Shown one piece after another: positions 1 through 20,000 of a stretch of 20,000 nucleotides of DNA. The notes under the pieces were generated by a model. That model did no database searches. It worked only from the letters and a program-made list of their open reading frames with translations, and was not told the origin of the DNA. Each line of letters starts with the position of its first letter. Position 1 is the stretch's first letter. Position numbers and translations under genes: made by a program. This stretch comes from Psammoneis japonica (Eukaryota): the NCBI GenBank assembly GCA_008632985.1, contig QPGO01000279.1, positions 55,128 to 75,127 on the forward strand, given 5' to 3'.

Positions 1-45
1 TTGGCAACATGATGATCACTGTCAAGGATTTTGTTGATCTTGTCA

Positions 46-428
46 CATCAAGTGCAGTGGGCATCCCTGCCGTAGCCGCCGATGATGCTGCTTTCCTGCG
101 TCTGTAGGCTGTCCGTAGCGACGCTGATCCCGCAGAAGCGCGCACCAGGAAACGCGACTCTCAGCATGAGACCCACGAAGGGCTACGGGAGATCCATACG
201 ACTGAGACCGGCGCGACTGGCCATCGCGTACGTGACTCACCTTGTATGAAGGGACTGCGTAGGATGTATGTACGCAGTACCGAGTATGATTGGTTCCGCG
301 CAGGGACTGAAGACGCGGCACTGTATGTCTTACTGTCGCGCGTACACATGCAGTCTTATAATTTACGCAACACACGAATTATCAACCCTCTTTACGACTT
401 AGTGCTTAGACCCTATTTTTGCATAGGG
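46..428 (+). ncRNA. Unassigned highly structured, CpG/TpA-rich insertion; candidate structured RNA or small mobile element
   Basis: Interrupts the Gypsy frame (…NSLV | DKINKILD…). Stems read directly: ccgtagcc 70-77/ggctacgg 181-188; tttcctg 92-98/caggaaa 146-152; catacga 195-201/ttgtatg 242-248; actgcgta 254-261/tacgcagt 271-278; ttggttcc 290-297/gggactga 303-310; cgcggca 314-320/tgtcgcg 334-340; ataatt 358-363/aattat 377-382; ccctat 411-416/ataggg 423-428. G.U wobbles favour the + strand. The insertion itself is well supported; RNA function is inferred. Confidence 0.5.
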
Positions 429-715
429 CACAAGACTGTTTGTGGCATGCGGTTTCTCAATGTGATTGGCTGTCAGCGTGAACACTTCAGTGTTAAAGAG
501 TGCATCAACATTGTTCATGGGTGTGGGGGCATTCTCCCATTTGATTTTTTCATTTGCAAAGTCCAACAACATGATTCCAAGACTGCTCATTGAGTCATGT
601 CCCATGATCACATCATGTTGACTTGAAGAAGCAGTGCTGTCATCTGCTTGTGCTGTCTTCTCAACCCTTTTGTGTTTGTCTAATTCAGGCAATGAGAACT
701 GCATTGTACAGTGAC

Positions 716-1745
716 ACAATTCTGCCTTGGTTTCACGGCCACAACCCCTGCTTGTTTTTCTACGTGAGCCCTGGTGCTGATGTCACCTTTTTCAGGTGGT
801 GTGATGATGACTCTTGCCTGCCCTTTCTGAGTGCATTTTTTATTGACATGCCTTTGTTCGGTCATCACAAGCAATCTCACGTATTTGAAAGCAACTGGCA
901 TCAACCTCTTTTGGTTGGTGTGCTTGTCATTCTTGTTGGCAATTTTTTCCTTGGTTGCAATTTTTTCTATGCAAGTTTCAGCACACAAATTCCATGTGTT
1001 CCAAAAGTCATTTCCAGATGGCCGACTGGCCAAACTACAAACTGTTCTCTGTCCATGCCTCTCAAGTGTCAATGACTCCCCTTCCATCTGTTGCCAATCT
1101 GAGTTCTCTGCTTTATGTGGTGGACAATCTTCTGTCATTGATGCTCCCAGAAGTCTGCATTTGAGATCAACTCAGCATGATTTGGCCATTCTTCTATTTG
1201 CTGACAATTCTGCACAAGTTTCAGTGCAAATTCTACATCTCTTGAAAGTGGTTTCAGATGATCCACTTGCCAATCCATGGATTGTTTTCTGTTCACACCT
1301 CTCAGGTCTTAATGACTCCTTTTGTCCACTGCCAATTTAAGTTCTCTGCTTCATGTGGTGAACAATCTTTTGTCAATGCCACCTGCAGAACTTGAACTCA
1401 AGACTTCAGCATGGGTTGACCAGTTTTTCCTGTCCCTTTGCTCTCTCTTTGGTTGCACCCATTCAAGATTGCTTGTTTCATCCTTGCAACCAGATCCTGT
1501 CCCAAGCAGATGTCCTGATGGCAGCATTGAGTGCTTCAAATTTGATGTCTGGTTTTGTGGGTCCTGTTTTTGCTGCTGCCAGCTATTTCTGGTGGGCACA
1601 ACAGACTTGTGGTGTCATTTTTGGCTGATTGCAACACATTCCTGCTGCACTTTATCAATGCACTGGGGGTGCAAGTTAGCTTGTTGCCAAAGTTGCAGGG
1701 TGGAAGTGCAGCAGCACTTTTAAATGCAGAATTTTGGTTTTGTTT
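716..1745 (-). mobile_element. Internal fragment of a related Gypsy LTR/3' region, inserted into the protease with a 16-bp flanking duplication
   Basis: tgcattgtacagtgac at 700-715 vs tgcattgtgcagtgac at 1746-1761. The minus strand aligns by eye with ~6650-7670 (shared atttaaa(a)gtgc, ccccagtgca, gcagga, agtcatcat and the same ~240-bp tandem unit). Confidence 0.75.
1005..1480. repeat. Two diverged tandem copies of a ~240-bp unit
   Basis: cctctcaagtgtcaatgactcc…gccaatctgagttctctgctttatgtggtggacaatctt (~1058-1131) vs cctctcaggtcttaatgactcc…gccaatttaagttctctgcttcatgtggtgaacaatctt (~1298-1369). Confidence 0.8.
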
Positions 1746-1945
1746 TGCATTGTGCAGTGACTGTCAGTCATGAAGAGTTTGCCCTTGGTTTCCCAAGTTT
1801 GGGTGGCGGATTTCTTCATTCTCAATTTCTGCATGAATTTGTGCAAAATCATGGTTGACAATGTTCCACTGTCAAGAAGAATGCACAAGGGCTCATTTTT
1901 CTCCTTTCCCAAAGAAGCATTCATGTGAGCAACAACTGTTGGACT

Positions 1946-4174
1946 GGTGTGTGAGTTGCTTTGGCATTTTTTCTGGGCTTCCTGACACCTGGTGACATGC
2001 ACAAGACTCCTCTGCAGGAGCAAGTCATTCTTCAGAATTGCTGCACAATGTTTTTTCAAACTGACAATTTTCCTTGCTGAGTGAATCAGAATTGTGTTTC
2101 TTGGGCTTGTTCTTGTGTTTGGAATTCTTCACATTGGGACTTGTGGTGAGTGACATGTTGATTTCCTGAGTGATGATGGCATTCAATTCTTCTTTTGGAG
2201 GGGTGTTTTTAGTGTTGCGATGTGACCACATGCGACTGCCATTTGAACAATGCCTTTTCATGTCATGCTCAACATTCTTCCAACATTCCTTGGCTAAAAG
2301 CAGCACTTGTCCATATTGTGAGTGGACTTTTTGCAACAATTGCACCACTCATTGGACTCGGAACATTTGGCACCAGATTGGCGATCACCTTGCGGGGTCG
2401 ACTGATGGCTCCTGCAGCAGGGCATGAGGTTGCACATGATGTCACAAAGAGCTCATCCTCATCCAAACTCTGCAAGGCTCAAAAGGAGGGCAGCAATTGA
2501 AATCATCATTGACCCCCTGTGTCCAGGTGGCAATTTCCCAGATCTTCATGGTCTTTGGTTTCTTCAAATCACATTGCAGGTGTCGTTTCTGGTTGCAAAG
2601 TAATTTCTTGGGGAAGACATGAGTGGTGAGGTGTTGCGGGCATTTTTCGAAGGCTCTTTCATCACATTTGGACTCCAGGTTTGCTGCCTTGTTCTCAAAA
2701 ACTTGAAGAGCATCTCCCTGCAACCTCAGTTTGGTTTCACCATGTAATTTCTCAAAATTCCCTGGGATTAACTTACCACCTTTTACCCTGTTTTTCCACG
2801 GGAAGGGTGAATTCCCGGGGAATCGCCACGAATTGCCAATCTTGTCTACACATGCTAAATGCATGAATAAAAAACATTGGCAATTCCCCGTGCTTCCCCT
2901 CTCATGCATTTCTGCGAATTCTACATGCCGGCATGTGCAGAACCACACACCATCAACCGACCGCAACAAAAATGGTCAACACACCATGGAGCATTCGCAT
3001 CCCATTTATGATGGCTCTTGTCAAACAACAATGAGACCAGTCAATCCAGTGAGTGAGATTATGATCAACAGTGTAAAATAAAAAATGAACAGAACTGTGA
3101 CAGATGATGTTGAGCAGACAACTGGAGCATTGATCCAAAAGAGTGATTCTAAATTATCCACTTCATTCTGCACATAAGATGTGTCAATTGGAAGAACAAA
3201 CATGGCCATTCACTCCGCCATGTTTTCATCAGCAACACATGGTTCTGCTTTTGCCTTGGACTTTACCACAAATGCTGCATGGCTTGCATTTGTGACCTGT
3301 TGTTGTGCAGCTGCAAATGCAAACTGTGAGGCATCTAGAGTGAAGGCTAAGGCAAAAGCAGAACCTCACAAGGCCAATAAAAATTGTGGGGGATTGTGTG
3401 GTCATGCTTGTTCTTTCCTTTGACCCATCTCATTTGCAGAACACAGTGTGTCATGTGTTCCTTCTTGTGTGGCATGGTCACAAATGCAAACCACAAGGGC
3501 TCTAGAGCAAAGGATGAGGCAAAAATAGAACCGCACATGAGCAACATTGACATGGCTGATTTAACGGTAAAGTTTGTTCTTTCCTTGCTCTGCCACAAGA
3601 AGCTGCTTTTGTGTCGATGCACTGGTCATTGTCGTCATCTTGCATCATGTCGCGTCGGTTGTCAGGGGGATAAAAGCACAACCACCTGACTGTAATTACC
3701 GCACATTACCACATTCCATTTGTTTTGTGTTCCCCTCCCCTGAGCCCTTTCAGGCATTCTTTCCCACAAAATTACCCTCATTTCCCGGGTTTTCCCCAAA
3801 CGGGCAAGGTGACTCCCCCTCACCCTGGCCATTTTGGGGAATCCCCAAAAGGGCAAAACCAAACTAAGCCTGCAACAACACATGCACAATTTGGCACTTG
3901 TCAGCTTGGCTCTGTTTTGCATTCTGTCCAACCTGAAGTTTGGCAAAGGTCTTCAAAAATTTGATGAACTTGGGAACTCCTTGCTTGTTGTGACACTTGA
4001 TGTTGATCATGCAAGTGCAACTTTTTCATCTCCAGGGTCAAAACACTGCTCCATGTTGAGACACTAGCTTGGCTTGAGTGCTTTTGGCTTGGAAATCAAT
4101 TCCAATGGAACAGGACCAATTTTCTCCTGCTTGACGCAGATCTGGGCATCCATCACTTGGGGTGAAAGCTTCAT
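1946..4174 (-). pseudogene. gag: Gypsy gag (capsid-like region plus CCHC zinc knuckle), split by the 2725-3868 TIR element
   Basis: ATG at 4174-4172. Frames are continuous once 2725-3868 and one TSD are removed (LLQ|GDA). CX2CX4HX4C at 2303-2344. Multiple stops and frameshifts. The 3' border is approximate. Confidence 0.8.
2725..3868. mobile_element. Non-autonomous TIR DNA transposon (1144 bp) with an 8-bp TSD, a length typical of hAT or P elements
   Basis: TSD cctgcaac at 2717-2724 and 3869-3876. TIR ctcagtttggtttcacc (left) vs the reverse complement of the right end, cttagtttggttttgccc. Many ttccc/gggaa subterminal motifs. Removal restores gag LLQGDA. Confidence 0.88.
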
Positions 4175-4210
4175 TCTTGTGGTTTTACCTTCTGTGGAGT
4201 GCATGCACAA

Positions 4211-4515
4211 TGCACTCCTGTGCTTGAAGAAGGAGTGCAAATGAAAGCAGAACAAATCACAAAAAGTGAAAATTGTGAGATTGGGCTTCTTTGCTCTCTG
4301 CAATTTTGAGATTCTCCAAAGGTGTTCTCAACAGCCTGAAGCTTTGGCACTGCTTCTACAGACTGAAGGCCTTTTGGAGAATCTGATCATGACAACAGAT
4401 TATCCGGATGCAATCAACATTGACGCCTCACATGTCAACATCATCTGTTGATGGCACCTGTGCAATTTTCAACATTGGATCAACTCTGTGTGATTGATCC
4501 ATCCTTTGTGTGCAT
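4211..4515 (-). repeat. 3' part of the 5' LTR of Gypsy #1
   Basis: Inverted homology to ~7720-8019 (e.g. tctgtagaagcagtgc, gtgatttgttct, tttcatttgcactc, ttcttcaagcacag). Lies just upstream of the gag ATG. Confidence 0.75.
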
Positions 4516-4584
4516 CCACAACTGTGACACGATTGACACATGGCACAACATGTGTGACTGTGAACAAGCACATGACAATGCATG

Positions 4585-6536
4585 CTGCAGACCATCTCAG
4601 AAAGCTTGAGAAAACATTCACATGGCTCGAGCAAGCGGGATTGAAGGTTAACACCAAAAAGTCATTTTTTGCCAAGCCAGAGGCAAATTGTCTGGGTTTT
4701 CACATCACTCAAAATTGCATCAGACCAAAACCTGAGAAAGTGGAGGCGATTCAAGCAATTGCAATGCCTGCCACTCACTGGGAATTGTTGTGTTTCATTG
4801 GCATTGTCAATTGTTGTGGAGACATGTGATCCAATGCCTTTGGCCAAACTCACCTCATTTAAGGTTAAGTGGCAATGGACAAGCACAGAACAAAAAGCCT
4901 CCAAAAATGTGAAGTGGATCATGTCAAAAGATGTGTCACTGTCACACCCAAATTTCAACATTCCCTTTGTGATCCATGCTGACACAAGCAATTCTCTGCC
5001 AGGAACAGTCACAATGCAGAGAACAGCAGACCTGTTGCCTTCTACAGCCACAAGTTAAATGGAGCACAGACGTGCCACACTGCAATGGAAAAAGAATTTG
5101 TGTCCACAGTGGAGACACTTGAGGAATTCCAGAATGTGCTGTTTGGCCAACAGATTAACATGCACATGGATCACAAGAATTTCACCCAAGAGAACTTCAC
5201 AATGGAGAGACTCATGCATTGGCAACCAACAACAGAAGAATGCAGCTCCAAAACAATTTACCTCAAGGGCAAAGTGCATGTTGTTGCAGACACGATCAGC
5301 CCAATCACTGTGAAGAAAAGAGAACCTGTGGAAAACCTCAGCAATGAAGAACCAGCTGACAAAAGTTGCACCTGAACCCCATGACAATGTCTTTCCATTA
5401 ACACAAAAAGTTCTCGACACTAAACACAAACAGGATGAAGACATTTTCCCCAAATTGTTGGACGCAACATGTCATGCCAAAACTTTTTGTTGAGGCAAGC
5501 AAAACCAGATGCTCATCTGTCACAAGGATGAAATCATTGCACCAAAGACATCACAATGAGTGGTGACAGATTGCCACCATTTGCACCTTCTGCACCATGG
5601 CATAAATGGAACTGAAGAGACAATCTCACAACACTTGTGGTGGTCCATCTCATGTGAAGATGTGCAAAGATGTGTTGAAATGTGAGACATGCCAGAAATT
5701 TAAAAACAAACAAAAGAAATGTGGGCATTTGCCTCCTGAGTTCACAGAACCAGTGCCATGGGAAAGACCACACATGGATCTTGTTGGAACATGCAAGATG
5801 CATCGGAAGGACAAAAAGAAACCCCCAGCTCTGAAATGTCTGACAATGACAGATCCAGCAACAGCACAGTTTGAAGCAGCAGAAACTCCAAACATGGAAT
5901 CCATGACCATTGCTAGATTGTTAGAGAGAATGTGGTTCTTGAGCAGATGTCCTTGGCCATTGTTGGTCACTTGTGATTGTGGAAGTGAATTTGTTGGATG
6001 TCAATCTCTAGAACTGTGGTTCACGATTGTTGTGGCATTAAATGCAAGCCCACAACCATGCAAAATCCACAAGCAAATGCCACAATTGAGCACATGCATC
6101 AAGTGCTGGGCAACATGCTGCATGCATTTGATTTACAAAATGCACCCCTGGATGCTCAGAGTCCTTTTGAGGGAATGCTGTCAGCAGCAGCCTTTGCACA
6201 GTGTGTTTGACATGTCATGCCACTGTGCAAGCTGCACCAGAAGAATTGGTCTTTAAAATGCTAGAGACATTGCCAACTGGAAGTTTGTTCAGAAACAAAC
6301 ACAAGATGTTTTAAATGCAAACAATGCCAGAGAGAATGCATGGTGCACTCCATGCACGTGCAGAGTGGGAGAAAAGATCTTGCTAGAAAAAGACTCTAAA
6401 AAATTAGAATGGCCTTGTGCTGGGCCATGCATCATGACAACTGCACACACTCAATGGCAAAGTGCAGATCAAATGTGGTGATCTCATGCATTGACACTGT
6501 CAACATCTCCAACAAATGATTCCATTTGACGAATGA
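4585..6536 (+). pseudogene. pol: Gypsy #2 pol fragment: RT C-terminus, RNase H and integrase (H2C2, DDE core, GPY/F)
   Basis: HLRKLEKTFTWLEQAGLKVNTKKSFFAKPEANCLGF…RPKPEKVEAI; LSHPNFNIPFVIHADTS; EKEFVSTVETLEEFQNVLFG…HMDHKNFT; CETCQKFK…CGHLPP…PWERPHMDLVG; TCDCGSEF; NPQANATIEHMHQVLGNML; PCAGPC…NGKVQI. Domain order RT-RH-INT identifies Gypsy. Frameshifted. Confidence 0.93.
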
Positions 6537-6551
6537 CTCCAATGTGCAATT

Positions 6552-6562
6552 GGGAAGGGGAG
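6552..6562 (+). promoter_or_regulatory. Polypurine tract of Gypsy #2
   Basis: gggaaggggag, ~15 nt after the integrase stop and immediately followed by TG. Confidence 0.7.
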
Positions 6563-8019
6563 TGCAGCATGCATTGTCAAGTGGGTGAAATTGTGCATGT
6601 TCACAATTGCACAATGTTGTGTGTCAATCGCACCACAATCATGGATGCATGCAAAGATCAAAAAACCAGATCTAAATTTAAAGTGCCATCACTCCTCTGC
6701 CAGCCAGTCTGACCTGGCTGACCCACAGCCCCAGTGCACAGTTAAGTGTGGCAGGAGCTTGTGCGGCATTAGCCAGAATGGGCATCACCAGAAGGTGACA
6801 CCCCACCAAGACAACTGAAAAAGAATGATTCACAAGAGGGATTTATTGCGCGCTTGCTGATGACAGCCACAGAAGGCACACCACAACTGCAACAGACAAT
6901 TGCATTCAGATGGGTTTTTAAAACAGTCAACAAAAGGAGCCTTGAAGGCAAGACAAGCAGGTCATTGGAGAAAATGTTTGTTGCACACAGAAGCAGCACT
7001 GAGTCTTGCACAGAAAAGCGGATGGCAGCAGCAAACCAACGACAATCAAATGGCACCACAGGATGACTTGTGTTCTTGCTGAAAAGGGCTGAAACAGAAG
7101 CAGCACATTCACCTCATAGAGTGAAGTGCTTGATTGCATGGCAGAGAAAAAAGTGGGGTTGAAGACCGATTGGCAAGGACAAAAGTAGTCTGGATGAGTG
7201 ACACGTAGATGGTCAGTGGTGTCACATTGACACAATGCCAGATCTTGCGCAGAACAGCCGATGAGAGCAGCAAATGGATGACAATCAAATGACTCTGAAG
7301 GATGACTGACATTCTTGCTGAAAAGGAGAAGCAGCACTTTCACCACAAAGAGTGAAGGACTTGATTGCATGGCAAGGAAAAGAAGTGGCATTGAAAACCA
7401 ATTTGCAAGGATAAAAACAGTCTGGGGAAGTCACATGCAGATCATCAGCAGCATCTGCACATCCTGGCAGAATTTGCACTAGAACCTGTGCAGAAAATTT
7501 TCTGAGACAACAGAAAATTACGAGAAACAACAACCAGCACACTGGCCAACAGGCCGTGACAGTCATCATTTTCCACTGATGAACATTGCTCATCATGTTG
7601 TAATGAGGATGTGCCATTGGTGAACAAGGACAGCATGGGCTTGTTGGAGCCAAATCAACACAAGAAGGTGCGCAGCAACCTGTGTACAAGCTGAGGGCAT
7701 GCAGCTGATGTCGAAAAAGTGTGTGCAAAGATCAGATGGATCACACAGAAAAAATTGATCGGATGTCTAAAATTACAAAAACACCATGGATGGACAATGT
7801 TGACACACAAGATGTCAATGTCGATTGCATCGGGACAATCTGTTGTCACGTTTAGATCACACGAAAGGCCTTTGCTCTGTAGAAGCAGTGCAAATGCTTC
7901 AGGCCATTGAGAACTCTTTTGGTAAATGGCAAAATCACAGTGTAAAATCTGATCTTATAATTTCCACTTTTAGTGATTTGTTCTACTTTCATTTGCACTC
8001 ATTCTTCAAGCACAGTGCA
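6563..8019 (+). repeat. Putative ~1.45-kb 3' LTR of Gypsy #2 containing a ~240-bp tandem duplication (7004-7242, 7243-~7485)
   Basis: Starts TG after the PPT. The last ~300 bp match the sequence upstream of gag in Gypsy #1 and end in …aagcaca(gtgca). Tandem units begin tcttgcacagaa and tcttgcgcagaa. Confidence 0.65.
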
Positions 8020-8117
8020 AAAGGTCAATTGACATTGCAAAACAAAACTTTTTTAACTCTCATGACTTGTTTTTCTGATGTGGCAGCTGTCTCCACTGTT
8101 GCCTGCAATCTTTCAAG

Positions 8118-8536
8118 CTTTTGATTTTTTCCCCTCATGCAACGTGCATCTTATCTTGTGAAGCAGCAGGGACAGTGTGTTCATGTGACCGTGTTTCTGC
8201 CTCAGTGCGGCTTCTGGGGACCAGCCCTTCCTCTGCATTGGTCACACTCAGTGTTGCGCACATTTTAATCTTTTTTTCTCATGCAACATGCATCTTGTCT
8301 TGTGAAGCACCAGTGACAGCATGCTCAAGTGTTTCTGCCACAGTGTGGCTTCTGGTGACCAGCCCTTTCCCTGCATTGGTCACACTCAGTGTTGCGCACA
8401 TTTTAATCTTTTTTTCTCATGCAACATGCATCTTGTCTTGTGAAGCACCAGTGACAGCATGCTCAAGTGTTTCTGCCACAGTGTGGCTTCTGGTGACCAG
8501 CCCTTTCCCTGCATTGGTCACACTCAGTGCTGTGCA
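8118..8536. repeat. Three tandem copies of a 138-bp unit
   Basis: Copies start at ~8118, 8261 and 8399. Copies 2 and 3 are identical except for the last few bases; copy 1 is diverged. Confidence 0.93.
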
Positions 8537-8599
8537 CAGAAATTTTGCATGTGTGACATCCTCCTGCAGATTTCCTGTGCACAGCCATTTGCAAGCTTA

Positions 8600-9620: not shown

Positions 9621-12265
9621 AAAGACAAGGACAAGGATTCAATCATTGACTTGCTTGCTGTGCTTCTGGCAACACTGACTCAGTCATTGCAAAGGAAGAT
9701 TTTAAAGGAATTCATGGTGTCTGGCATCGTTGACCAAAGACTCTGAATTGCCCTGATTTAGAGTCTGTCATTTGTTGTGCTGTCAAATGGCAAGTCAAAA
9801 GAATGTGATCTTTGCTTGTGATCATTCCCCACCTTGATCACAGTGTGGGACAACAGTGGGGCGAGGTCACATCCCTGAAATGGTTTTTGATAAACTCAAG
9901 TTCCATTGGGACTGTGATCCCACCTGGAACATCTGCCAGCCTGATGCCAGCATTTTGCAAGAGCCCTTGCTGTGTCATCAGAGAGGCAAGAAAGGGCACA
10001 TGAGTCCCAGGGGATCATTTGGCACTTTGAACTGGTGAGTGCACACTCAGGTTTGTTGTGTTGGCCCATCTCTGATTGAAGTGCACACTCACTCATTGGC
10101 ATTTCAGCTCTTCATTTACTTTCCCCTTTGTCATTCAGGCTTCATGTGTGACTGTTGCCCCATGATCAAATCTTTCACTTTTTGCATTTTGACTGGAGTG
10201 CCAAATGCTCAGCAAATGTTTGGCAACCATCTGGCCTTGTCATGCCCCAATCCATCCAGATGCACTCAACTTTGCCAACTGGATTTGCACTCCTGTGCAC
10301 TCAGTGATGTCCAGTGACATTTTTGCATTTGATGTTTTCATGTTGCATGTTGACATGTCAAGCTCTCAGGTTAAATGTGACAAGGCATGCTCTCATGAAT
10401 GGGCACTGCGTGTTGCATGAAGTTGTTCACATGCAATTTTCTTGTCCATGCTGCAGCATTCCCATGGGAATTTCATCTCATCAACTTTTTGCTCTCTTTG
10501 TTTTCACCAATGTCAACAGCGTGAAATTCACACACTCCGGTGGCGCCTTCTCTGCTGTGGTGAATTGGAAAATTCCTGCATTTGTGGCTGCTTCTTGCAA
10601 AACACAGTCCTTTTGTCTCCATCAATGATGTGTCTGAAGAAGTTGATGGCAACACAGAGAGCATTTGCTCTTTGAGCCAAAAACTTGAGGAACAGGGGGT
10701 TGGGATCGGCCATTGAGAATGGTTTTCTTTGCCACAACAACTCCCTTTCTTGTTGGAGGATGGTGGCAAAAAACAAAGGATCATTGGATGCCACTTCCTT
10801 TGATGCCAAAGATCCTTCTGGTGAGGAAGAAAAGTCCACCACTTCTGCTGAATTGGAGCCCAGTGCTGGGTGCATGGAATCACTGCTCATTGGCGCTCCT
10901 TTTGTGGATGATGAGGACACCAAAGATCTGTTTGCTGAGTTTGTAAATGATGATAAAGACGACAAAGACAATGAAGATGACAAAGGAACATCTCTGTGAT
11001 CTGAGACATTGACAAAGCAGAATCTACAGAAAAACATGCTGCGGCACTTCTCCAATGTAAAGTTGTGCAGAGAAGTCACAGCCATCAATTTTCTTGCACA
11101 GAGTTGGCACTTGAAATGCCATGGAACCAACCCCAGCCACCACATGCCACACAAGACGACACCCAAGTTAATGTGCAAGCATGATGTCATCAAGAACACT
11201 GTCATGTCAAACACATGCCTGTAGAAAGAGAGCATTTCAGACATGTGCAGTCCACACACTGTTGTGCAATGACAGAATCTCATCTGTGACAAGCATTTTG
11301 GATGCTCCTTTGGAGATTTTGTCCTGTCCCACACTGAACCACAGAAGTCAAACACAATGGAAGCACATGGCATTGAAAGCATCCACCTGCAACCACATTG
11401 TGACATTCCAAAGGGCGGGTGTCAAACTGCAAATCTGCATGTGGGAAAACTCCTGAACCCCTGGAAGTGTGCCAAGATCTCACTGACTGATGTTGCCATC
11501 CAGACAGTTGAGAAAATGGCAATTGCTGAGGGCATTAAAGTGTTTAAATTCATGGGTAAATGCAGAGACAACCTGCACGACACTTGCTGATTAGACTGCA
11601 GGAATGGAACACACAAAAAGTGACACCACAAGTGACAATGAAGAATGCAAAAGTGACAATGAAGGCAAAGAAGAAGGGCATGAAAAGACTCTGACAAAGA
11701 ATGCAAAGAAGTTCAAGACATTTTAGCAGATGTAAATTCCAGTCCAGATCAGCTGCAAGACGATGCAATCACCAACCACAATGACCATGGCAGTGCAGAA
11801 AACAAAGATGAACTGCAACACAAAGACAAACCAACCAAGAATGCAGGGCCATCAGCAATGAGAAGTGGAAAAGTGTGTGGTGTGGTGACACACCTCCACA
11901 GACAAAAAAAACAACAGAATGAGAGACAAAAGTGCAATTTACAGGATTGGCAGAAACCAAAGAGGAAAGACACAAAGAGAGCAAGCTCAAATGCTGTCAC
12001 CATCTGTGAACAAACACAAGTCCCAACCTAGAACAGGACATGGAATGTGACATTGAGACAGGAATGGTTGTGGCACAATTCATGCAAGAGATCAATGACC
12101 AATTGCAATCAGGAGAGGGTTTCTCATTCGCCCAGCAACACCTGCTGCATGAAGGCCTCAAGACATGTGGCCAACGAGGACATGAAACTTCAAGGGGAAG
12201 AAGGTCAAACAACTCCATGACAGAGTGTGCTTTGCACCAGTGTCAGCCAACACAGCATCCACGGA

Positions 12266-12690
12266 TTCACCAGGCAAAATTGGCAAAAGTCGGGTGTGGC
12301 AAAAAGTGTGCATTTGGTCAAAATTGATCATTGAGTGCAAATGGTGGCATCTTTGGGGTCCCTTTAAAGAGCCGGACATGCATGTTTCTCATTTGACCAT
12401 CACAGGTCCGTCTCATGGGGGGTGTCAAAACATCATGCTTTGATGCANATTTTCAATTTTATGTGACCTCAACAGCTGAGTGCATCATGTGACGATTAAT
12501 CCTCGAGATGCATCAAAGCATGATGTTTTGACACCCCCCATGAGACGGACCTGTGATGGTCAAATGAGAAACATGCATGTCCGGCTCTTTAAAGGGACCC
12601 CAAAGATGCCACCATTTGCACTCAATGATCAATTTTGACCAAATGCACACTTTTTGCCACACCCGACTTTTGCCAATTTTGCCTGGTGAA
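12266..12690. repeat. Perfect 182-bp inverted repeat (12266-12447 / 12509-12690) with each arm ending at an N, within an insertion in the Copia RT
   Basis: The arms are exact reverse complements (identical ORF translations on both strands). N at 12448 and 12691 sit exactly at arm ends. Confidence 0.9.
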
Positions 12691-14028
12691 NGTGGTGTTA
12701 AAGACATGACTCTGACTGAGAGAAAGAGAGCTGTGACAGCCCTGATGTTCCTCATGGAGAAACAAGATGGCAGCGTGAAAGTTTGGATGGTTTACAATGG
12801 AAAGCTGATCAGAGAATGGCCAGACAAGGATGAATCAGATCGATGCCAAAGAAGGGCATGACACGATGAGCGTGGATGTGCCAAATGTGTTCATTCAAGC
12901 CCAGGCACCGGAACCCAAGAGGGACAAGACTGGATCATGATGAAGATTGCAGGAGTGTTGGTCTGCATGCTGGCGAGCATTGATTCCAACCCATGTGGAC
13001 CACATGTGGTCATGGAAAAGATGAAGAGAGTCATCTGGTGTCTCGAGGTTCTCAGAGTGACATGCAGCACGCCAGTTGCAGCCTCTTCACTGGGTGCAAA
13101 AAGTTTTGCAAGGACCTGGAGAAGATTGGGTTTAAGTTCACTCCATGTGATCCATGCATTGCCAATTGCAAAGTCAACGGCAGACAGCACACAATCTGTT
13201 TTCACATGGACGACCTGTTGTGGAGCTGCAAGAACCTCAAGGTCAATGACAAATTACAGAGCCAGCTCAACAAGATGCATGGAAGCCATGGAAAAGTTGT
13301 TGTGACTGAAGGGAAGAGACACACGACTGTCTGGACATGACCCTGGACTTCAGCAAGAAAGGCAAGGTGAAGGTTGACATGACCAAACACATCCGCAAGA
13401 TGATCAAACAGCTTCCAGAAAAGATCAAGAGCACCAATGCCACCATGATGCCAGCAGGAGAGAACCTGTTTAACACAAACAACATGAGGTCACCAGCTGA
13501 CAAAGCACACCTTCCATGCATGGGCAGCCAAAGGATCATTTTTGTTCAAGAGCAGTTGAATGGACATGCACCCTGTGACTGCAGCCCTGTGTGTGTGTGT
13601 GAGTCAGGGAACCAGCCAAAAAGGATTGGGGAAAGCCAGTGCAATGTGTCAAGCACCTGAACCACACAAGGAATGAAGTTGCCGCACTGAGTGCAAAAGA
13701 CCACACCTTCAAATTCTCAAGTGGTGTGTGGATGCATCATCATTTGTGGTGCACCCAGATTTCAAGAGCCACACCAGATGCATTGTGACAATGGGTGACA
13801 GAGCAGTGCAGGCTGTTTCTAAGCACAGGAAACTGAACACCCAAAACAGCTCTGAAGCTGAGCTTGTCAGAGTCAACAATGCCATGACTGTGATTCCATG
13901 GACCAAGTCATTTGTGCAGCAACAAGGGCATCTGATTGACAAGAATGTCCCACAGCAGGACAACCAGAGTGCCATCCTGTTAGAGACCAACAGGTCAAGA
14001 GTGCCAGGAAATGGTCCAGGGTGCTCAA

Positions 14029-14436
14029 CCCTTCAACCACCGGACTTGAGCAAGTGACATTTTATTCACGCGATTTTGTTTTGGAACTTGCATTCGCCAA
14101 AAATCTGGGGGAACCCTTTTTGTAATTTAGAAAGTTCAATGTCAACTTTTAACACCGGTTTTTTTCAAGCTTCATCTGTGAACAGAGAAGAACTAAATCT
14201 CAACCTTCAACAATGCAGGTTTTTGTGAATCACTGTCACAAATGGAGCAAAACAATGCCACACCCTTGGAGCTCCCAATGAGCAAATGCACATGGCACAC
14301 TTTACGTAGATTGTGGGTGATGTGACATTTTTGTGCTGTGTTCATTGTGTTGTCATGAAAGTGCATGACACATCACAAATCCTCAAGCAAAGCAAATCTC
14401 CACCCACAGAGATTTGCTCCCCTGGTGGTTGAAGGG
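14029..14436. mobile_element. piggyBac-like MITE (408 bp) in the Copia RNase H
   Basis: TIR cccttcaaccacc / ggtggttgaaggg (13 bp exact). 4-bp TSD tcaa at 14025-14028 and 14437-14440. Removal restores GKWSRVLN-I*CSFVT (Copia KRSRALNIRYFFVT). CCC…GGG ends plus a 4-bp TSD are piggyBac hallmarks. Confidence 0.85.
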
Positions 14437-15404
14437 TCAACATTTGATGCTCCTTTGTCACAGAGATCAGATCAAGAAGGGCAACTTGAGAGCCCAGCGC
14501 TGCCCCCAAGATGACATGCTAGACTGGGAAACTTCATGATGAAGCTGTCACAGGGCAAGAAGTTCCAAAAGTTCAAGTGAGTGATCATGGGATGCCAGAG
14601 AGAAGGTGAGCAGGGTTCTTAAAATGCAGAAAAGAAAACGTAAGTGCACTGTTGTAAAAAGATGCAATTGCACTGATTTGGCAATCACATCACAATCATG
14701 TCACAATGCTCTGCCTCCCTGGCAGGGGCGCCAGGCACACCCTCCACACAGGAGCACCCTCTGCACAGGAGAAATGCTTGCCGCAGGTGAAGAAAAATGG
14801 AGCCTGTTGCACAATCTGGGTAAATTTCTAGCATCAATTTGGACCTTGATGGCAACCTAAAGACAGTGTCTAAGATAACACTGGAAACATGCACGGAAAA
14901 CTGGCAGCGTCTTCACTCATGCTGCAGTTGTTTCTTTTCCATCACCTTGTCCCAAGATGCAATTGTGGCAAGGAGAGGCAAAATGAGGGGCGGCAATTGC
15001 TTCTTTCTGTCTCTCTCGTTTCTCTTTTCTTGAGAGGTGCAATGGGGGAACGAGACAGCACTGGCAGCTGCTAGAGACTGCGTGGCATCCAAAAAGAGCG
15101 GTGGTGGTGTGGTGCCTCCAAAAAATGTGATGTGCACATGTGACACAAGATTCCACATTCCAAATTCTCACATTTGGCTCTCAAAAAGAGCTGGCACAAT
15201 GATTGCAAACCATTGCAACTGCAATTGCAACAACAGCACATGTAATCAGATTGAATGTGCATGGCAAACGCAAATTACAAACATCATTTCTCAGATCTGG
15301 TGATCGTTTGCAATCAATGTTATGACCATTCTCTGTAATTTAAGAACCCTGAAAGAAAGTGTGATAAATGCGCAAGCTGTTTGTGATGTCAAAAGAGAAT
15401 TCTG

Positions 15405-16600
15405 ATGCATGTGGGGGAAAGATCCCTGTCAAATGAGAGGCCAAAAGTGCCTCAGTTCCAATGGAACATAATTCTCAATTGGGGAGACTTTTTGTTCTTT
15501 GAGAACACATCAACCATGGAAGAGGTCAATCCCTGTGTCAATGACATGTTCAACACAGTGTTCGATGTGTTGCAGGATGCAGCAATGCAACAATGGCCTG
15601 TGGGTTGCTGGTTTAGGATCAGAGACCATGAGGCTTACAAGGAAATGGTGAACCACAACAAGTTCAAGGCTCTCATGGTGGAGAAGAGATTGCAATCAAC
15701 AAGAGCTCCGTGGGTGCCAATGGATGAAGCAAACATTGTAATGAGGAAGCAGGGCATTGAATTTAACAATGCAAATGATGAATTGCAACAATGGCTTGAG
15801 GTGGACAAGATGAAATTGACTGATGATCCTTGCCTCCACTGGGACATCCTGGACTTGTGTCAGTTGGCACAAGATGAAGCAAATGAATGAGGGTGGTCTT
15901 AGCCTGTGACAAGGTGGGGACCCCATTGTTGCCAAAATGGCAAGACCTGTGAAACAAGAGACATGAGATGATGCTGCACACTTGTGAGTGCATCAGGAAC
16001 TGGACTGAAATTTTGTCAGAGCATGTGTCTGTTCCCACACCAATGTTTTCCCTGCACAAAGAAATGGACGTGGCATGTGAAGTTGACAAGCACACCCAGG
16101 AAGCATGCAGAACAAAAGAGTGCTGGCAAGTTGTTGGAAGACAAGCCAGCAGGCAAGGTCACAGTTGTTAAAGACTGAGTGATCATTCAGTGGCTGGATG
16201 TCCCACATGTGGTGTGGACAGGTCAGGGGTCTGTGGTCCCCTTGTGAAACTTAATGCTGAAAATCCTGAAAATGCAATGAGCCAACACGTGCTCATGCGG
16301 GACAGTGATGGCATTGTGTTTGATGGACCAAAGTTGGCAAAACTTTTCCATTGCAAGACAAGTCTGGTGGGTCCATTGGTGACATGGACTTGTCACCAGA
16401 TGGAGTTCTTTGAGTTGACTCCAGAACTGATCCATGATTGGATCAGGGGACAGTTGGACAACACCTGTTTTAAGCAGTGCTGACAGAGAGAGTTCAAGAA
16501 GCATGCATCAGTGATGCAGCTGTGAATGTGCTTGATGCAGTCCTGGTTTGACATTCCAGATGGGCACATCCCAACATGCAGCAACTGGTGCAATGAGCAA
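15405..16600 (+). pseudogene. Degenerate ORF of unknown function
   Basis: Near-continuous protein-like reading (MEEVNPCVNDMFNTVFDVLQDAA…; …FFELTPELIHDWIRGQLDNTCFKQC*QREFKK) with few stops or frameshifts. No motif recognised. Confidence 0.35.
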
Positions 16601-16899
16601 AGTGCCAATGTGAGCAGCAGCAGTGTGTTGGAATGCCAAGTTGAGACACACGGATGTCATGCATTGTGACGCAGATTTGTTTAAGAAGAGATCTTTGATC
16701 TCTGATGTGGATCCATGTTGACTGAATGTGAGTGTTTTTATTCTCACTCTTTGGAGTGAATCATTTGGTTTGCACAATTGTTCATTGGTGTCCAGAGATG
16801 CCTGCATTGTGGCAGTTGCAGAGTCCACTTTGATGCCCAGGCACACCACAGCCACCAGAGACTGCCAAGGAAAGTGCAGCAAGCAGCACAGGAGACCTC

Positions 16900-18150
16900 G
16901 TGCGATTCCCTTTTGGCAACATTGACTTGCCAGTTCAACAGCAAATCCACATGGTTTTCACTGATGGAAACTCACAAGAGATCAAAGAGCTTGGAGATGC
17001 CACACAAAGGCACATGCCTGGAATGCACCAGGCAAGGTGTGGGTGGCACATTGCAGAGAAAGGTTGGTCAAGGACTGCCCCAGCAAGACCTGCATGTCCA
17101 CCTGCAGCTAAGAAATTTGAAGCTTCTTGTGGGGGCCATCCAGGTGTGGCTGTGCTTGTTCATGTGCCCAGGGGGTTGTGAGAATGAGGAAAAGATGATG
17201 GTCACCAGGGCCCTCCTTTTCATGTTTTTGCACTTCCCAATGGTCCTTGAGATTTGTGAGAGAATGGAGTCCAACCCAACACACATGTTCAAATTCATCT
17301 GTGGCAAAGTGTTCAACAAGGAAGCAAGCTGTGCTTTCTGTCAAAAGAAGTAGATTGATCTCTGCTGGGGAGCCAACAACTCCAGTCTTGAAGGTGCTAA
17401 CTTTGGCAGAAAGACCTGTGCTGCTCCAGTTTTGCCATCTCAGAACCTTGCAACAAGCACTGCAAACCTGGCAATGCAGTCAGATGCCAAGGTGAAGGGG
17501 AGCTTTTTTTGCAGTCAAGCTGTGCAGCTCATGACAAGTGTCTCTGGTTGAATCTCCCAACCGGGGATCATGTGCTCACCAAGTGCAAGGGCATTTTGGC
17601 TGGTCGATTCAAAGCCATCCCATGCTGTGAAGACATGCACAAACCCCAGTCATCCCACACAAACCAGGCAACTGGCGTGCGGAAGGACTGGACAACATGT
17701 TTGAAGATTTGTTGCAAAATGATGTAAAAGGTCCCAGAATGCCAGATGTGTTTGACCCATCAGTTGTGCCCAATCCAACTACCTTTTTTGAAGATTTGTT
17801 TGAGGAGCCAAGGTCAGCTGTGTCTTCCCTCAAGAATTGCTCAGCTGAGCAAGCGAGGAGTGCAGTTGACTTGATGATGATGCTGATGTTGAACATGGGT
17901 GCAGGAGGCTTTTCACAGATTTTGAACATCAACAACAAGGACAATGAGTCTAACGAAGAAGCAAAGATGAAGACTTGGGACTCGGCTTCCTTGCTGACTC
18001 AGAACAGGATGCTTTTCCACTGTGGACTGTGGACAGCAATGTGGTCCCACCCCCAACTGCCAACAAAGGTGTTTGCAACCTTTTGGTGCCCAGGACAAGC
18101 ATCATGTTGTGCAGTTTGCAAAGATGTTTCCTTGATTGATGTTCCAGATG
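16900..18150 (+). pseudogene. MULE/MuDR-type DDE transposase relic (C-terminal two-thirds)
   Basis: VFTDGNSQE (TDGNSQE 16960-16980), RCGWHI (17035-17052; the MULE CxxH motif), WLCLFMCPGGCENEEKMMVTRALL, NNSSLEGANFG (third acidic residue), and a possible decayed SWIM region near 18010-18060. Confidence 0.75.
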
Positions 18151-18321
18151 TGCAACCTTTGGCACAGTCCACAGATGAGATGACAGTGGACATGCAAAGA
18201 AAGCTTCAAGAATCATCAGACACAACTTGCCAAAATGAAAAGGAGAACTGCCCACCCCAATGGGTGTCAAACTGTTCGGAACATGACACCAAGAGGTGCC
18301 CACATGTGTCACAATGGACTT

Positions 18322-18490
18322 GACATCTTCTAATGTGACACACATGACATGACACAATGCATCCCTTGCATCATGTGATGCATCTGTGTCATCACACAGG
18401 GGTGCATTGTGCATTGCATGATGCATGAGTGTCACATGTGTGTTGTCATGTGATGCATTTGATGCATGTGTGTTGTCATGCACAATGCTC
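18322..18490. repeat. Low-complexity tract built almost entirely of TG/CA/AT steps
   Basis: tgtgacacacatgacatgacacaatgcat…tgcattgtgcattgcatgatgcatg…catgtgtgttgtcatg (the last motif twice). Confidence 0.7.
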
Positions 18491-18529
18491 AAATTTCATT
18501 ACAGTCAGATGCTAACTGCATTCCACAGC

Positions 18530-19400
18530 ACCTCTCTTGCCAAAAATCTTGGGAGCTCAAAAGACTCGGTCAAGGTGAATGTCCAGATTTCTTGTGTTTC
18601 TTGTTAAATTTTCTGGCATGTCTCACACTTGCACATGTGTTTTCTTGTGTCTTCACATGAGACAGACCACCACAAGTGTTGTGAGATTGTCTCTTCAGCT
18701 CCATTTTTTATGCCAGGATGCAGAAGGAGCGCATGATGCCAATCTGTGACCACTGATGCATTGCCAAGTTGCACAACACAATGTTTTGTTCTGTTCTCAA
18801 CAACAGATGTTGTTGTGTCCTCACATCAGAACTCCTTGCAATGGTTGTCATTTTTGCAAATGCACATTTCAGCAATTGCTCAAACTTGCGCAATTTTAGA
18901 AATTGCTCAAAGTTGCCATGTTTGAGCAACCGGGGATGCAAGTTTGAGCAATTGCTTCTTGAACTTTCACTGGCAAAAGCCAAGACTGAAACTTTCAGTC
19001 ATGACTGTCGAACATTGCTGAACAAGGTGTTTGCTCACATCCATTGTAAAGCTCACAAGTGTTTGAGCATTTTTCCTGTGTGGTGCAGTGTCTAGAACTT
19101 GTGAGTCAATGCAAAGACATTGTCATGGGATTTAGGTGCACTTTTGCAAACTGGTTCTTCAGTGCTGAGGTTTTCCACTGGCTCCATTTTCTTCACATTA
19201 AGTCAGCTGATTTTGTCTGCAATGATGTCAGCCTTGCCCTTGAGGTAAATTAATTTGGGACTGCATTCTTCTGTCATTTGATGCCAAGGCATGACTCTGT
19301 CCATTGTGAAATTCTTGTGAGTGAGATTCTTGTGATCCACATGTGTCTTCATCTGTGGGCCAAACAAGACACTCTGGAACTCTTGCAGTGTTTCCACTGT
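18530..19400 (-). pseudogene. pol: Gypsy #3 fragment (RNase H end and integrase H2C2), same family as #2, interrupted at ~18760-19090
   Basis: VETLQEFQSVLFGPQMKTHVDHKNLTHKNFTMDRVMPWHQMTEECSPKLIYLKGKADIIADKIS, collinear with 5109-5300. ctgaagagacaatctcacaacacttgtggtgg is shared with 5612-5643. Confidence 0.9.
18762..19090. mobile_element. Fragment of a DNA-transposon end with subterminal ttgctcaaac repeats, possibly CACTA-like
   Basis: Replaces ~130 bp of Gypsy linker. The motif ttgctcaaa/tttgagca occurs repeatedly in both orientations. The minus-strand end reads cactgcaccacacaggaaaaa, but cact overlaps host sequence. Confidence 0.45.
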
Positions 19401-20000
19401 CCCAGCTTGGCCCCTGGTGTGTGTCTGCAATCCTTGGGAGCATCCTTTGCAGGAGGCTGTGTGTTTTGTGCAAGACAAATCTCAGCGCACAACTCTGGCA
19501 TCATCTCACTGTCAGCACATTGCTGTCAAAAAACAAAAAAGCACGCAAGAATCTGGGTGCAGCAGCAACTGCAAGATGATGTTGCAAAGCATCCTTTGCA
19601 TGGGTCAAGTCACCAACACATTGCATCTGTCATTCATGATGTCTGCACTCATTGTCGCAGTGTCAGGTGGAGCTCTGGTTCATCCACAATCTGTGGAAGA
19701 CTGAATTGATGTGTTTGTTGACAGTTTCACACAGTGTTTTACTTTGTTTCAGAACTGTGTTGTCTCTGTTGCTCTGATGTCTCTCATGCTTTTTTGCATT
19801 TGCCACATGTCATTCACATTGTTGCACAGTTTTTGATGGAGATCCCAATCTAAGTGGGAATGATGCGCAGCCACTAAGACCCCCCCCACTGGGAGAATGG
19901 TGAGCCCATCTACAATGGGAGCACTGTTCTGCTGGTGAACAGTGCAGTGGTGTATCTTCACTGCTGTCTAAACACAGGACGGGGGATGACGTCAGTGAGG

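Follow-up and report, generated by a model that had tools for sequence, protein, structure and literature searches.

The window analysed here, a stretch of 20,000 nucleotides with a GC content of 45%, raises the question of what has removed nearly all of its TA and CG dinucleotides. An earlier note had proposed that a strand-symmetric mutator converts TpA to TpG/CpA throughout repeats, on top of CpG decay, in positions 429-20000. In the whole window there are 223 TA (observed/expected, o/e, 0.15) and 201 CG (0.195), along with 2247 CA (1.79) and 2239 TG (1.83); a dinucleotide count of the block 429-20000 gives 199 TA (o/e 0.14) and 167 CG (0.17). Used as a null, 300 mononucleotide shuffles of this block had on average 1464 TA (sd 27, minimum 1386) and 1000 CG (sd 24). 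The scarcity of both dinucleotides is therefore confirmed and is extreme; TA o/e is at most 0.27 in each of the 19 one-kb windows from 1001 onward, and the composition changes at about 428, in agreement with the proposed start.

Old, dead transposons, nested in one another, make up the block: three of the remnants are gypsy and one is copia-like, and they are joined by one element bounded by terminal inverted repeats (TIR) and by unclassified repeats (Table 1). Element A matches the Pfam families RVT_1, RT_RNaseH and RT_RNaseH_2, and rve weakly (E 0.021); element B is about 80% like element A. For the copia-like remnant, whose motifs lie at 13146-13736, Pfam searches gave no RVT_2 and no hit; its protein atlas lead is 'Reverse transcriptase Ty1/copia-type' (0.95), the sole Ty1/copia lead, from a 20-hit set with RVT_2 in 14% of its members.

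Table 1. Features of the window.
Feature	Position	Strand	Basis
Left flank of island	1..64	.	0 TA, 0 CG
Normal-composition island, non-coding, multi-copy	65..428	.	Composition and read depth
TA- and CG-depleted, CA/TG-enriched block	429..20000	.	Dinucleotide composition
Degraded Ty3/gypsy element C (gag-like 2717-2547; protease DSG region 1951-1760; next stretch 692-504)	504..2717	-	tblastn with P0152
Putative TIR-bounded non-autonomous element	2719..3874	.	19-nt inverted arms (2719-2737 and 3856-3874), 84% complementary
Degraded Ty3/gypsy element A, several frameshifts (RT 4494-4826; RNase H 4645-5372; integrase 5606-6454)	4218..6454	+	Pfam, tblastn
Inverted copy of 4218-4503, fragment of a further element	7735..8015	-	75.5% identity
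Tandem repeat within depleted block, 138-bp unit, 2.9 copies	8134..8538	.	
Palindrome	12266..12690	.	91% self-complementary
Copia-like RT/RNase H remnant	12862..14054	+	Motifs CDPC, HMDD, WCVDA
Degraded Ty3/gypsy element B (RNase H, integrase zinc finger)	18578..19568	-	Pfam, tblastn

TA and CG losses progress in parallel across three decay classes. The TA and CG o/e values are 0.14 and 0.12 in element A, 0.12 and 0.13 in element B, 0.12 and 0.15 in element C, and 0.07 and 0.17 in the copia-like remnant; the TIR element, at 0.33 and 0.37, represents an intermediate stage, and the island at 65-428 has 1.29 and 1.25. The coupling rests on these classes, since in 500-bp windows the correlation between both values is weak (Spearman 0.31, p 0.054). 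These figures support TpA loss on top of CpG decay in transposon remains of several kinds.

Both dinucleotides were converted to TG/CA. The deficits in TA (1266) and CG (834) add up to 2100, and the excess of CA (991) and TG (1009) to 2000; all remaining dinucleotides lie within 277 of the expected count. The codon fates in gypsy pol point in the same direction. They were scored at positions conserved among at least five homologues with at least 50% agreement, in small samples that come from a single TE superfamily. Three of 19 conserved Tyr are kept, all as TAC, while eight read TGT/TGC and five CAC; in contrast, the control residues D, H, G, P, E, F, N and W are kept at 123 of 163 positions (Fisher 5e-7). 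Conserved Ile (n=30) reads ACA five times, ATG three times and never ATA, and among 31 conserved Arg the seven that are kept are all AGA/AGG, with 12 CAN, four TGN and no CGN. Against P0152 alone, the single closest full-length homologue, 28 aligned Tyr (one counted twice in overlapping HSPs) comprise three kept, eight changed to Cys and six to His. The Tyr to Cys/His changes that the earlier note had read in Gypsy thus stand against real homologues, at 13 of the 19 conserved positions. YLG to CLG, YGHLP to CGHLP and RYPWP to RCPWP are visible directly in the homologue alignment, and YPDF to HPNF was matched by eye against P0152; at GPY the change of Tyr to Cys is seen, but VGPY reads VGTC and not GPC as had been given.

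Paralogous copies within the window show the same conversion. Pairs of them contain 41 adjacent TG/CA double differences, against a rough expectation of about four from independent transitions, together with 37 TA-versus-TG/CA and 16 CG-versus-TG/CA differences, 114 other transitions and 165 transversions. The differences gta/gtg, ctcag/cttag and ttgg/ttag previously pointed out between paired copies are present. In a separate sample, 40 of about 2000 copy differences from the contigs of run X1, only six are TA or CG changed to TG/CA in the window, and in two a transition gives rise to a TA or a CG.

The process is strand-symmetric, as had been claimed: conserved Tyr became Cys eight times and His five times, and the sense strand carries 769 CA and 643 TG, with no clear excess of either. 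This bears on the idea that an ADAR-like enzyme edited A to I in double-stranded TE RNA and that reverse transcription fixed the changes in DNA, since both products are found on the sense strand. Moreover, ADAR prefers G as the 3' base, whereas T or C is preferred here, and depletion is just as strong in the TIR element, in the tandem repeat and in unclassified DNA. The identifiable elements are mostly retrotransposons, and ADAR favours a 5' U (bioRxiv 10.64898/2026.01.13.699255); even so, we regard this explanation as very improbable.

The loss of TA depends on the flanking bases. The block contains five RTAY sites (o/e 0.01), against a mean of 367 (sd 20) in the shuffles, 95 sites of the mixed classes RTAR/YTAY (0.13) and 99 YTAR sites (0.27). 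This bears out the statement that surviving TAs are mostly YTAR and that RTAY is nearly absent. The best survivor is TTAA (0.42), and CTAG is among the better ones (0.17). At the trinucleotide level o/e is 0.05 for TAT, 0.11 for both TAC and TAG, and 0.25 for TAA. The per-strand rule for A is T-A-T > T-A-C ≈ T-A-G > T-A-A, from which it follows that the palindrome RTAY is lost first and that TTAA persists longest; an additive per-strand model fits the 12 off-diagonal tetranucleotide values within a factor of about 2.5. The order of loss is seen in the TIR element, where RTAY is absent (21.6 expected) and the other TA classes are at 0.37-0.48. The ratio of RCAY+RTGY to RTAY has reached 1200:5, as compared with 26:1 for CA+TG to CG. 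Stated for T, the rule reads A-T-A > G-T-A > C-T-A > T-T-A.

The 364 bp at 65-428 bear on regionality. They contain 24 TA and 34 CG with a GC content of 54.7%, and nine RTAY where 4.6 are expected; a protein search with them gave no match. Given that 1-64 is also depleted, this stretch does not mark the block's edge but forms an island. Summed contig depth at position 264 is 1358, versus about 35 for unique contigs, and so the island is a repeat that has not been affected; the term 'repeat-wide' is for this reason wrong. With a multi-copy sequence spared, the process would depend on region or state rather than reflect a genome-wide bias. The island was either inserted more recently or is protected, and in the former case it carries no information about targeting.

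This last possibility touches on an account in which a genome-wide mutational or repair bias operates with no targeting, all old neutral DNA drifts towards a composition poor in TA and CG, and the island is merely recent. All segments besides the island are depleted, whatever their type, with the TIR element in between, as expected from a simple clock. Nevertheless, the RTAY ratio at equilibrium would require a rate more than 200 times that of the reverse transition, and such a rate, acting across the whole genome, would also deprive genes of Tyr, of Ile-ATA and of two stop codons out of three. In addition, the sole measured case, that of Bigelowiella natans, is regional, and the consensus loose ends of other copies in run X1, a very small sample, retain CG and TA. 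A bias of this sort seems to us quite improbable.

The signature is absent from related elements elsewhere. Across 85 related gypsy loci, taken from metagenome and viral contigs, TA o/e ranges from 0.5 to 1.06 (median 0.79), and the RTAY/YTAR ratio, obtained for 79 of them, has a median of 1.15 and a minimum of 0.57, versus 0.04 here; one control locus (L070) combines a very low CG (0.07) with normal TA (1.05). The signature could also be conceived as a sequencing or assembly artefact, for example if modified bases were systematically miscalled, and two isolated N (12448, inside the palindrome, and 12691, just beyond its end) and the lack of a spacer in this palindrome do hint at imperfect assembly. 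However, among the contigs listed for run X1 the eight longest (10,276 of the 20,000 bases, depth 31-40) show no differences, the island boundary included, where a contig of this run spans 357-1559 with none, although the best-matching run may be the window's own source and would then not be independent support. The elements carry frameshifts and TGA stops, as real decay would produce, and in four of 152 homologues, from unrelated metagenome assemblies, each of the three conserved Tyr columns holds Cys or His. Since read-derived contigs match exactly across the island boundary, we give an artefact hardly any credence.

We therefore favour, with a probability of about 0.65, a reading in which two context-specific transition processes have run almost to completion on dead transposons. 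In the first, methylated CpG would decay to TpG/CpA; the second would be a TpA-specific transition to TpG/CpA of the kind measured in B. natans. An enzyme acting on silenced DNA could be responsible for the latter, and one may speculate that it would most likely be a TadA/ADAT2-type DNA adenine deaminase. The natural tRNA target of enzymes of this type is an A preceded by U. Cytosine methylation would mark the same DNA, and the effect may be defensive.

The primary lesion might instead be on thymine, since double-stranded sequence fits A>G on one strand and T>C on the other equally well. A TET/JBP-type enzyme would oxidise T at R-T-A in silenced repeats, and the resulting 5hmU or 5-formyl-U would mispair with G or be misrepaired, giving T>C (cf. 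dinoflagellates and base-J organisms). 5hmU:A pairs, however, are only weakly mutagenic. Dinoflagellate 5hmU is described as favouring T in TA and TC, being enriched at repeats and overlapping 5mC (PMC11572971), which would explain the joint decay of TA and CG. Nonetheless, TC shows no depletion in this DNA (1118 observed, 1139 expected), and a search of the window for a dinoflagellate spliced-leader relic found none; this route is possible and, in our view, unlikely. On the favoured reading, that of two transition processes, the block looks like the end state of TpA-specific hypermutation alongside ordinary methyl-CpG decay, and the earlier proposal of a mutator that turns TpA into TpG/CpA on both strands of selfish DNA holds.

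Several known systems share part of this pattern. Ascomycete RIP is also a transition-only, dinucleotide-specific and strand-symmetric degradation of transposons with sharp borders, but its chemistry is the opposite (CpA to TpA); the RIP indices are inverted here, with TpA/ApT at 199/1324 = 0.15 and (CpA+TpG)/(ApC+GpT) at 4422/2322 = 1.90, and the multi-copy island is untouched. Restriction by APOBEC3/ADAR likewise consists of context-specific hypermutation of selfish nucleic acids; it acts on single-stranded cDNA or dsRNA and leaves its footprint (C>T/G>A, or else A>G) on one strand, whereas here both strands and non-retro elements are affected. In E. coli, very-short-patch repair shapes the abundance of CTAG and CCAGG, and it resembles the present case in a T:G-directed repair bias that turns TA words into CA/TG words; it is bacterial, modest and confined to a single motif, and CTAG is here among the sites that survive better. 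Methyl-CpG decay, known from vertebrates and from TEs of rust fungi, truffle and others, agrees with the low CG, the gain of TG/CA, the change of conserved Arg from CGN to CAN/TGN and a CpG-normal island within depleted DNA. It accounts for only 834 of the 2100 missing dinucleotides, and to our knowledge no methylation-driven process removes TpA.

The closest likeness is to the alga B. natans, the only one in which TpA-specific hypermutation has been reported so far (Mettrop et al., bioRxiv 10.64898/2026.01.13.699255, version 14 Apr 2026); this preprint makes the statement that no well-described pathway exists out of date. In mutation-accumulation lines, silent integrated viral DNA mutated about 1000 times faster than the remaining genome; in two viral regions 230 of 231 mutations were A>G or T>C, and every GC-biased one was on TpA. 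The same preprint describes 124 genomic clusters poor in TpA and rich in CpA+TpG, and an enrichment of RT, endonuclease-RT and DDE domains in low-TpA CDS; its authors liken the process to RIP and propose an ADAT2-like DNA adenine deaminase. Both cases share the conversion of TpA to TpG/CpA on both strands, regional and not genome-wide, the long-term footprint of scarce TpA with abundant CpA+TpG in runs of 1-kb windows, selfish DNA with RT and DDE domains as the victim, and a GC content of 45% (PMC12730881, Table 1); judged by our own o/e values, the preprint's cluster thresholds are passed by 19 of the 20 one-kb windows. The targets in B. natans are single-copy giant-virus and virophage inserts with Rho(TpA) of at least 0.45, whereas the LTR retrotransposons here are saturated, at 0.07-0.14. 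The hypermutated regions of B. natans have essentially no CpG component (1 of 211 mutations non-TpA), and hence the lock-step of TA and CG is not part of the known process. The preprint nowhere mentions CpG, and its main text contains no CpG component and no analysis of flanks; unlike in that text, CG falls here alongside TA and there is a clear T-A-Y / R-T-A rule. What this window adds is thus saturation on LTR retrotransposons, the order of flank preference, and CpG decay in step with that of TpA.

The dinucleotide profile of the window is well outside the ordinary range. At a GC content of 45%, TA occurs 223 times (observed/expected ratio, o/e, 0.15) and CG 201 times (0.195), and CA (2247; 1.79) and TG (2239; 1.83) are in excess. 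The anomaly begins at position 429, where the earlier note had placed it, given that the o/e values for TA and CG are 0.14 and 0.17 in 429-20000 versus 1.01 and 1.14 in 1-428; the scarcity of both dinucleotides that it described is in fact extreme. In 300 mononucleotide shuffles of 429-20000 the mean count was 1464 for TA (sd 27, minimum 1386) and 1000 for CG (sd 24), the observed counts being 199 and 167, and the TA o/e is 0.27 or less in 19 of the 19 one-kb windows from 1001 onward. Relative to base composition the deficit is 1266 TA plus 834 CG (2100), and the excess is 991 CA plus 1009 TG (2000), with all the remaining dinucleotides within 277 of expectation. Since deficit and excess are nearly equal, we infer that TA and CG were turned into TG and CA, and the same balance argues against a loss of TA to AA/TT or by transversion. 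The stop triplets of this block are 106 TAA, 38 TAG and 547 TGA; because TAA and TAG are few, the dead DNA is full of long false ORFs, and the 20 kb hold 54 stop-to-stop ORFs of at least 100 aa. In genomes and metagenomes, the false ORFs of such DNA make gene counts too high. Gene callers would over-predict proteins here, with little Tyr and much Cys, His, Gln and Trp.

Within the window, every nameable part of the depleted DNA is derived from transposable elements, and the remainder is unclassified repeat. Searched exhaustively with HMMER, the RNase H ORF has 2355 relatives, of which the best are 45-53% identical and nearly all come from metagenome assemblies; 19 of the 20 top homologues are from metagenome sources only (three are named just "hypothetical protein") and one is a snail protein. 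The homologue P0152 is an intact Ty3/gypsy polyprotein of 1497 aa, which was used to place three degraded elements, gypsy A, B and C. In the copia-like ORFs the domain RVT_2 was not found by Pfam, even at an E value of 5, and a word-indexed protein search gave no match for the RNase H, integrase and copia-like ORFs. Rfam and tRNA scans of the window found nothing. Among contigs derived from sequencing run X1, the summed depth of the window repeats reaches thousands, versus about 35 for unique pieces. The copies of the 138-bp tandem repeat differ at TA/TG and CG/TG pairs, among others. The palindrome is perhaps a genuine foldback element, perhaps a product of misassembly; isolated N characters are present at 12448, inside it, and at 12691, one base beyond its end.

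Features of the window and the basis on which they were recognized
Feature	Position	Strand	Basis or description
Island of normal composition	65-428		364 bp, non-coding
Gypsy C, degraded, frameshifted	2717-504	-	tblastn with P0152
Putative TIR element	2719-3874		
Reverse transcriptase and RNase H	4494-5372	+	Pfam on stop-to-stop ORFs
Gypsy A, degraded, frameshifted	4587-6454	+	tblastn with P0152
Tandem repeat	8134-8538		138-bp unit, 2.9 copies, 92% identity, in depleted block
Palindrome	12266-12690		spacer-less, 91% self-complementary
Copia-like RT/RNase H remnant	~12862-14054	+	motifs CDPC, HMDD, WCVDA; Ty1/copia lead from protein atlas
Integrase zinc finger and RNase H	18607-19481	-	Pfam on stop-to-stop ORFs
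Gypsy B, degraded, frameshifted	19568-18610	-	tblastn with P0152

The direction of change can be read from conserved codons. For this, 154 homologues were placed on the window by tblastn, and codons were used at positions with five or more aligned homologues, no fewer than half of them in agreement. The 19 conserved Tyr positions carry TAC in three cases, TGT or TGC (Cys) in eight, CAC (His) in five and other codons in three, whereas 123 of 163 positions are kept for the control residues D, H, G, P, E, F, N and W, whose codons contain neither TA nor CG (Tyr retention versus controls, Fisher 5e-7). The picture is unchanged at a stricter and at a looser threshold, with Tyr replaced by Cys or His at 7 of 12 and 16 of 26 positions, respectively. 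Against P0152 alone, of 28 aligned Tyr (a tally in which overlapping HSPs enter one residue twice) 8 now read Cys and 6 His, and 3 are retained; the gypsy examples of Tyr read as Cys or His given in the earlier note were seen in this comparison, HPNF being read against P0152 by eye. At 30 conserved Ile positions ACA is found five times and ATG three times, both being products expected of ATA, which is absent, and the retained Ile codons are ATC or ATT only. Seven of 31 conserved Arg are kept, all as AGA or AGG, and CAN is present at 12 positions, TGN at four and CGN at none; this absence, the CG o/e of 0.17 and the gain of TG and CA are the signature of CpG decay. Codon fates and mass balance together bear out the proposal that TpA was converted to TpG/CpA on top of CpG decay. 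In paralogous pairs within the window, a tally in which two self-inverted alignments enter each difference twice, TG in one copy faces CA in the other as an adjacent double difference in 41 cases, each the trace of a single ancestral TA or CG that decayed oppositely in two copies; the same pairs show 37 TA-versus-TG/CA differences, 16 CG-versus-TG/CA, 114 other transitions and 165 transversions. At 80% likeness, X1 yields paralogous contigs by the thousand with about 2000 differing places, and the contexts of the 40 of these that were listed gave no readable direction.

The loss of TA depends strongly on its flanks. RTAY is reduced to five sites over 19.6 kb (o/e 0.01), the mean of the shuffles being 367, and the o/e is 0.13 for RTAR/YTAY, 0.27 for YTAR and 0.42 for TTAA, so that the near absence of RTAY and the survival of YTAR are sharper than had been claimed. 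Among trinucleotides the values are 0.05 for TAT, 0.11 for TAC, 0.11 for TAG and 0.25 for TAA. Products outnumber survivors 1200:5 for RTAY (an equilibrium-style ratio of 240:1 here), 24:1 for the mixed contexts and 9:1 for YTAR, and the ratio of CA plus TG to CG is 26:1. These values can be described by a model in which the two strands would mutate independently of each other, with the rate depending on the base 5' of T in the order A > G > C > T or, equivalently, on the base 3' of A in the order T > C > G > A. When fitted on the four palindromes, this model gives the other 12 tetranucleotides within a factor of about 2.5 by our own arithmetic, and therefore a palindrome-reading enzyme is not required. 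The Cys codons are TGT in seven of eight cases and the His codons CAC in five of five, which agrees with T-A-T being the fastest target on the top strand. The resulting flank rule is T-A-T > T-A-C ≈ T-A-G > T-A-A, RTAY being the first to go; it is a concrete requirement on any candidate enzyme, be it a TET/JBP oxidase or a DNA adenine deaminase of the TadA/ADAT2 kind.

The segments of the window fall into three classes of decay, across which RTAY is the first to disappear and TA declines in parallel with CG. The island has an o/e of 1.29 for TA and 1.25 for CG, with nine RTAY (4.6 expected); in the TIR element the values are 0.33 and 0.37, with no RTAY (21.6 expected); and in all other segments they are 0.07-0.14 and 0.12-0.38 (about 0.12 and 0.15 for the class), with five RTAY (344 expected). 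The island contains 24 TA and 34 CG at a GC content of 54.7%, and no protein match, continuation of gypsy C or coding support was found for it. Positions 1-64 have no TA and no CG, so the normal stretch is embedded in depleted DNA, and its junction is real given that an X1 contig spanning 357-1559 has no differences from the window. The island belongs to a multi-copy family, with a summed depth of 1358 at position 264 in the X1 contigs, and other copies carry a 4-base deletion. A 171-bp contig of a second run, X2, is 89% like 60-228. Since the island is repeated yet spared, repetition alone is insufficient for being hit, and to call the conversion repeat-wide was too strong. The island may be a young insertion, or a stretch shielded from both decays like a CpG island.

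As controls we used 85 loci encoding relatives of the window RNase H, 79 from metagenomes and six from viral contigs, the former being drawn from the best 80 relatives and mostly intact. The depletion signature is present in none of these best 80 metagenome relatives. Over the 85 loci the TA o/e ranges from 0.5 to 1.06 (median 0.79) and the CG o/e from 0.07 to 1.43, and the RTAY/YTAR ratio of the 79 metagenome loci has a median of 1.15 and a minimum of 0.57, versus 0.04 in the window. Controls with very low CG and normal TA, such as L070 (CG 0.07, TA 1.05), indicate that CpG decay alone does not lower TA. In L070, L003, L022 and L047 the CG o/e is 0.07-0.25 and TA is near-normal (0.70-1.05), the two decays being separable. 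At the protein level, three conserved Tyr columns were compared in 152 homologues: eight carry Cys or His in at least two of them, and four RNase H homologues from unrelated metagenome assemblies (P0021, P0036, P0124 and P0125) do so in all three, with one to three of six conserved Arg changed. These proteins hint at a similar TpA decay, accompanied by less strong CpG decay, in other environmental eukaryotes, and are only a lead because gene callers favour stop-poor DNA.

An artefactual origin was also considered. The eight longest listed X1 contigs (10,276 bases, depth 31-40) have no differences from the window; X1 is possibly the assembly's own source, so this agreement is not independent, and consistent exact k-mers at such depth rule out miscalls from noisy reads. 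Truly old elements are also what the frameshifts, the TGA stops and the 75-80% identity of the copies indicate.

Both strands are affected. On the sense strand, Tyr became Cys (A>G) eight times and His (T>C) five times, and in the four elements that bear protein remains the sense-strand counts are 769 CA and 643 TG; in these elements no strand asymmetry was found beyond base composition, and the sense o/e is higher for TG than for CA, yet the raw counts are reversed, which is evidence for neither side. Depletion is as strong in the TIR element and in non-coding repeats as in the retroelements. This depletion and the symmetry point to a process acting on chromosomal DNA and not to RNA editing passed on through reverse transcription, and the strand-symmetric process envisaged in the earlier note stands. 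ADAR editing fixed by retrotransposition, which would be restricted to the sense strand and to retroelements, was rejected on the eight Cys and five His and on the depletion outside retroelements.

A process of the same kind has been reported in Bigelowiella natans (bioRxiv 10.64898/2026.01.13.699255). According to this preprint, 231 of 302 nuclear point mutations in mutation accumulation lines fell in two integrated viral regions, at a rate there of ~6e-7 per site per generation; 230 of the 231 were A>G or T>C, all at TpA, and only 11 of the 15 lines showed the process, at a rate ~1000-fold over background. The genome is described as containing 124 clusters of 1-kb windows poor in TpA and rich in CpA plus TpG, with reverse transcriptase, endonuclease-RT and DDE enriched in 324 TpA-poor CDS, and the authors compare the process with RIP and put forward a DNA adenine deaminase resembling ADAT2 (bioRxiv 10.64898/2026.01.13.699255). 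When our own o/e values are set against the thresholds of the preprint, 19 of the 20 one-kb windows pass, and 1-1000 fails with a TA of 0.46. The same A>G or T>C change at TpA is found here in an indirect but polarised form, in Tyr and Ile codons and in the mass balance. The conversion of TpA to TpG/CpA on both strands of selfish DNA, on top of CpG decay, is right in substance, with the enzyme and the defence role at the level of candidates, and the remark that no well-described pathway was recognizable is outdated, since measurements of "reverse-RIP" are available for at least one organism. In the literature, no TpA-to-TpG/CpA decay of transposons was found described apart from this preprint, and nothing usable was found on cytosine methylation in B. 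natans. The window is probably a further instance outside the published B. natans data. Its GC content of 45% is the figure tabulated for B. natans, versus 27% for Amorphochlora (PMC12730881), a match that is no proof of origin. A natural adenine deaminase of genomic DNA, if real, would be of interest for genome defence and for base-editor engineering.

It is conceivable, although unlikely (a probability of roughly 0.15), that a single silencing-coupled pathway, in some lineage other than B. natans, produces both TpA decay and CpG decay. Once marked as selfish, DNA would be both CpG-methylated and attacked at T-A-Y, the attacker would be a natural DNA adenine deaminase or a thymine oxidase, and both self-complementary pyrimidine-purine steps would be driven to CA/TG at equal pace; the paired TA and CG ratios of the three decay classes bear on this last point. 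If true, the pathway would be a "two-dinucleotide RIP" that deprives invaders of every Tyr codon and leaves them one stop codon of three.

Fungal RIP, which converts CpA to TpA, was rejected because TpA/ApT is 0.15 and (CpA+TpG)/(ApC+GpT) is 1.90, the inverse direction. In dinoflagellates, 5hmU is reported to replace T preferentially in TA and TC, on repeats and overlapping 5mC (PMC11572971); in the window TA is depleted and TC is not (1118 versus 1139 expected). A search of the window for a dinoflagellate spliced-leader relic gave no matches at three or fewer mismatches. As for B. natans, the main text of the preprint makes no mention of CpG and deals neither with flank context nor with saturation of retrotransposons, all of which are evident in the window. 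The kind of process is known from one preprint, and what is new here is the context rule and the coupling to CpG decay, details that make the mechanism testable; if the DNA is from B. natans, little beyond these two details would be new, and if it is not, it would be a second instance and would show the system run to completion on retrotransposons.
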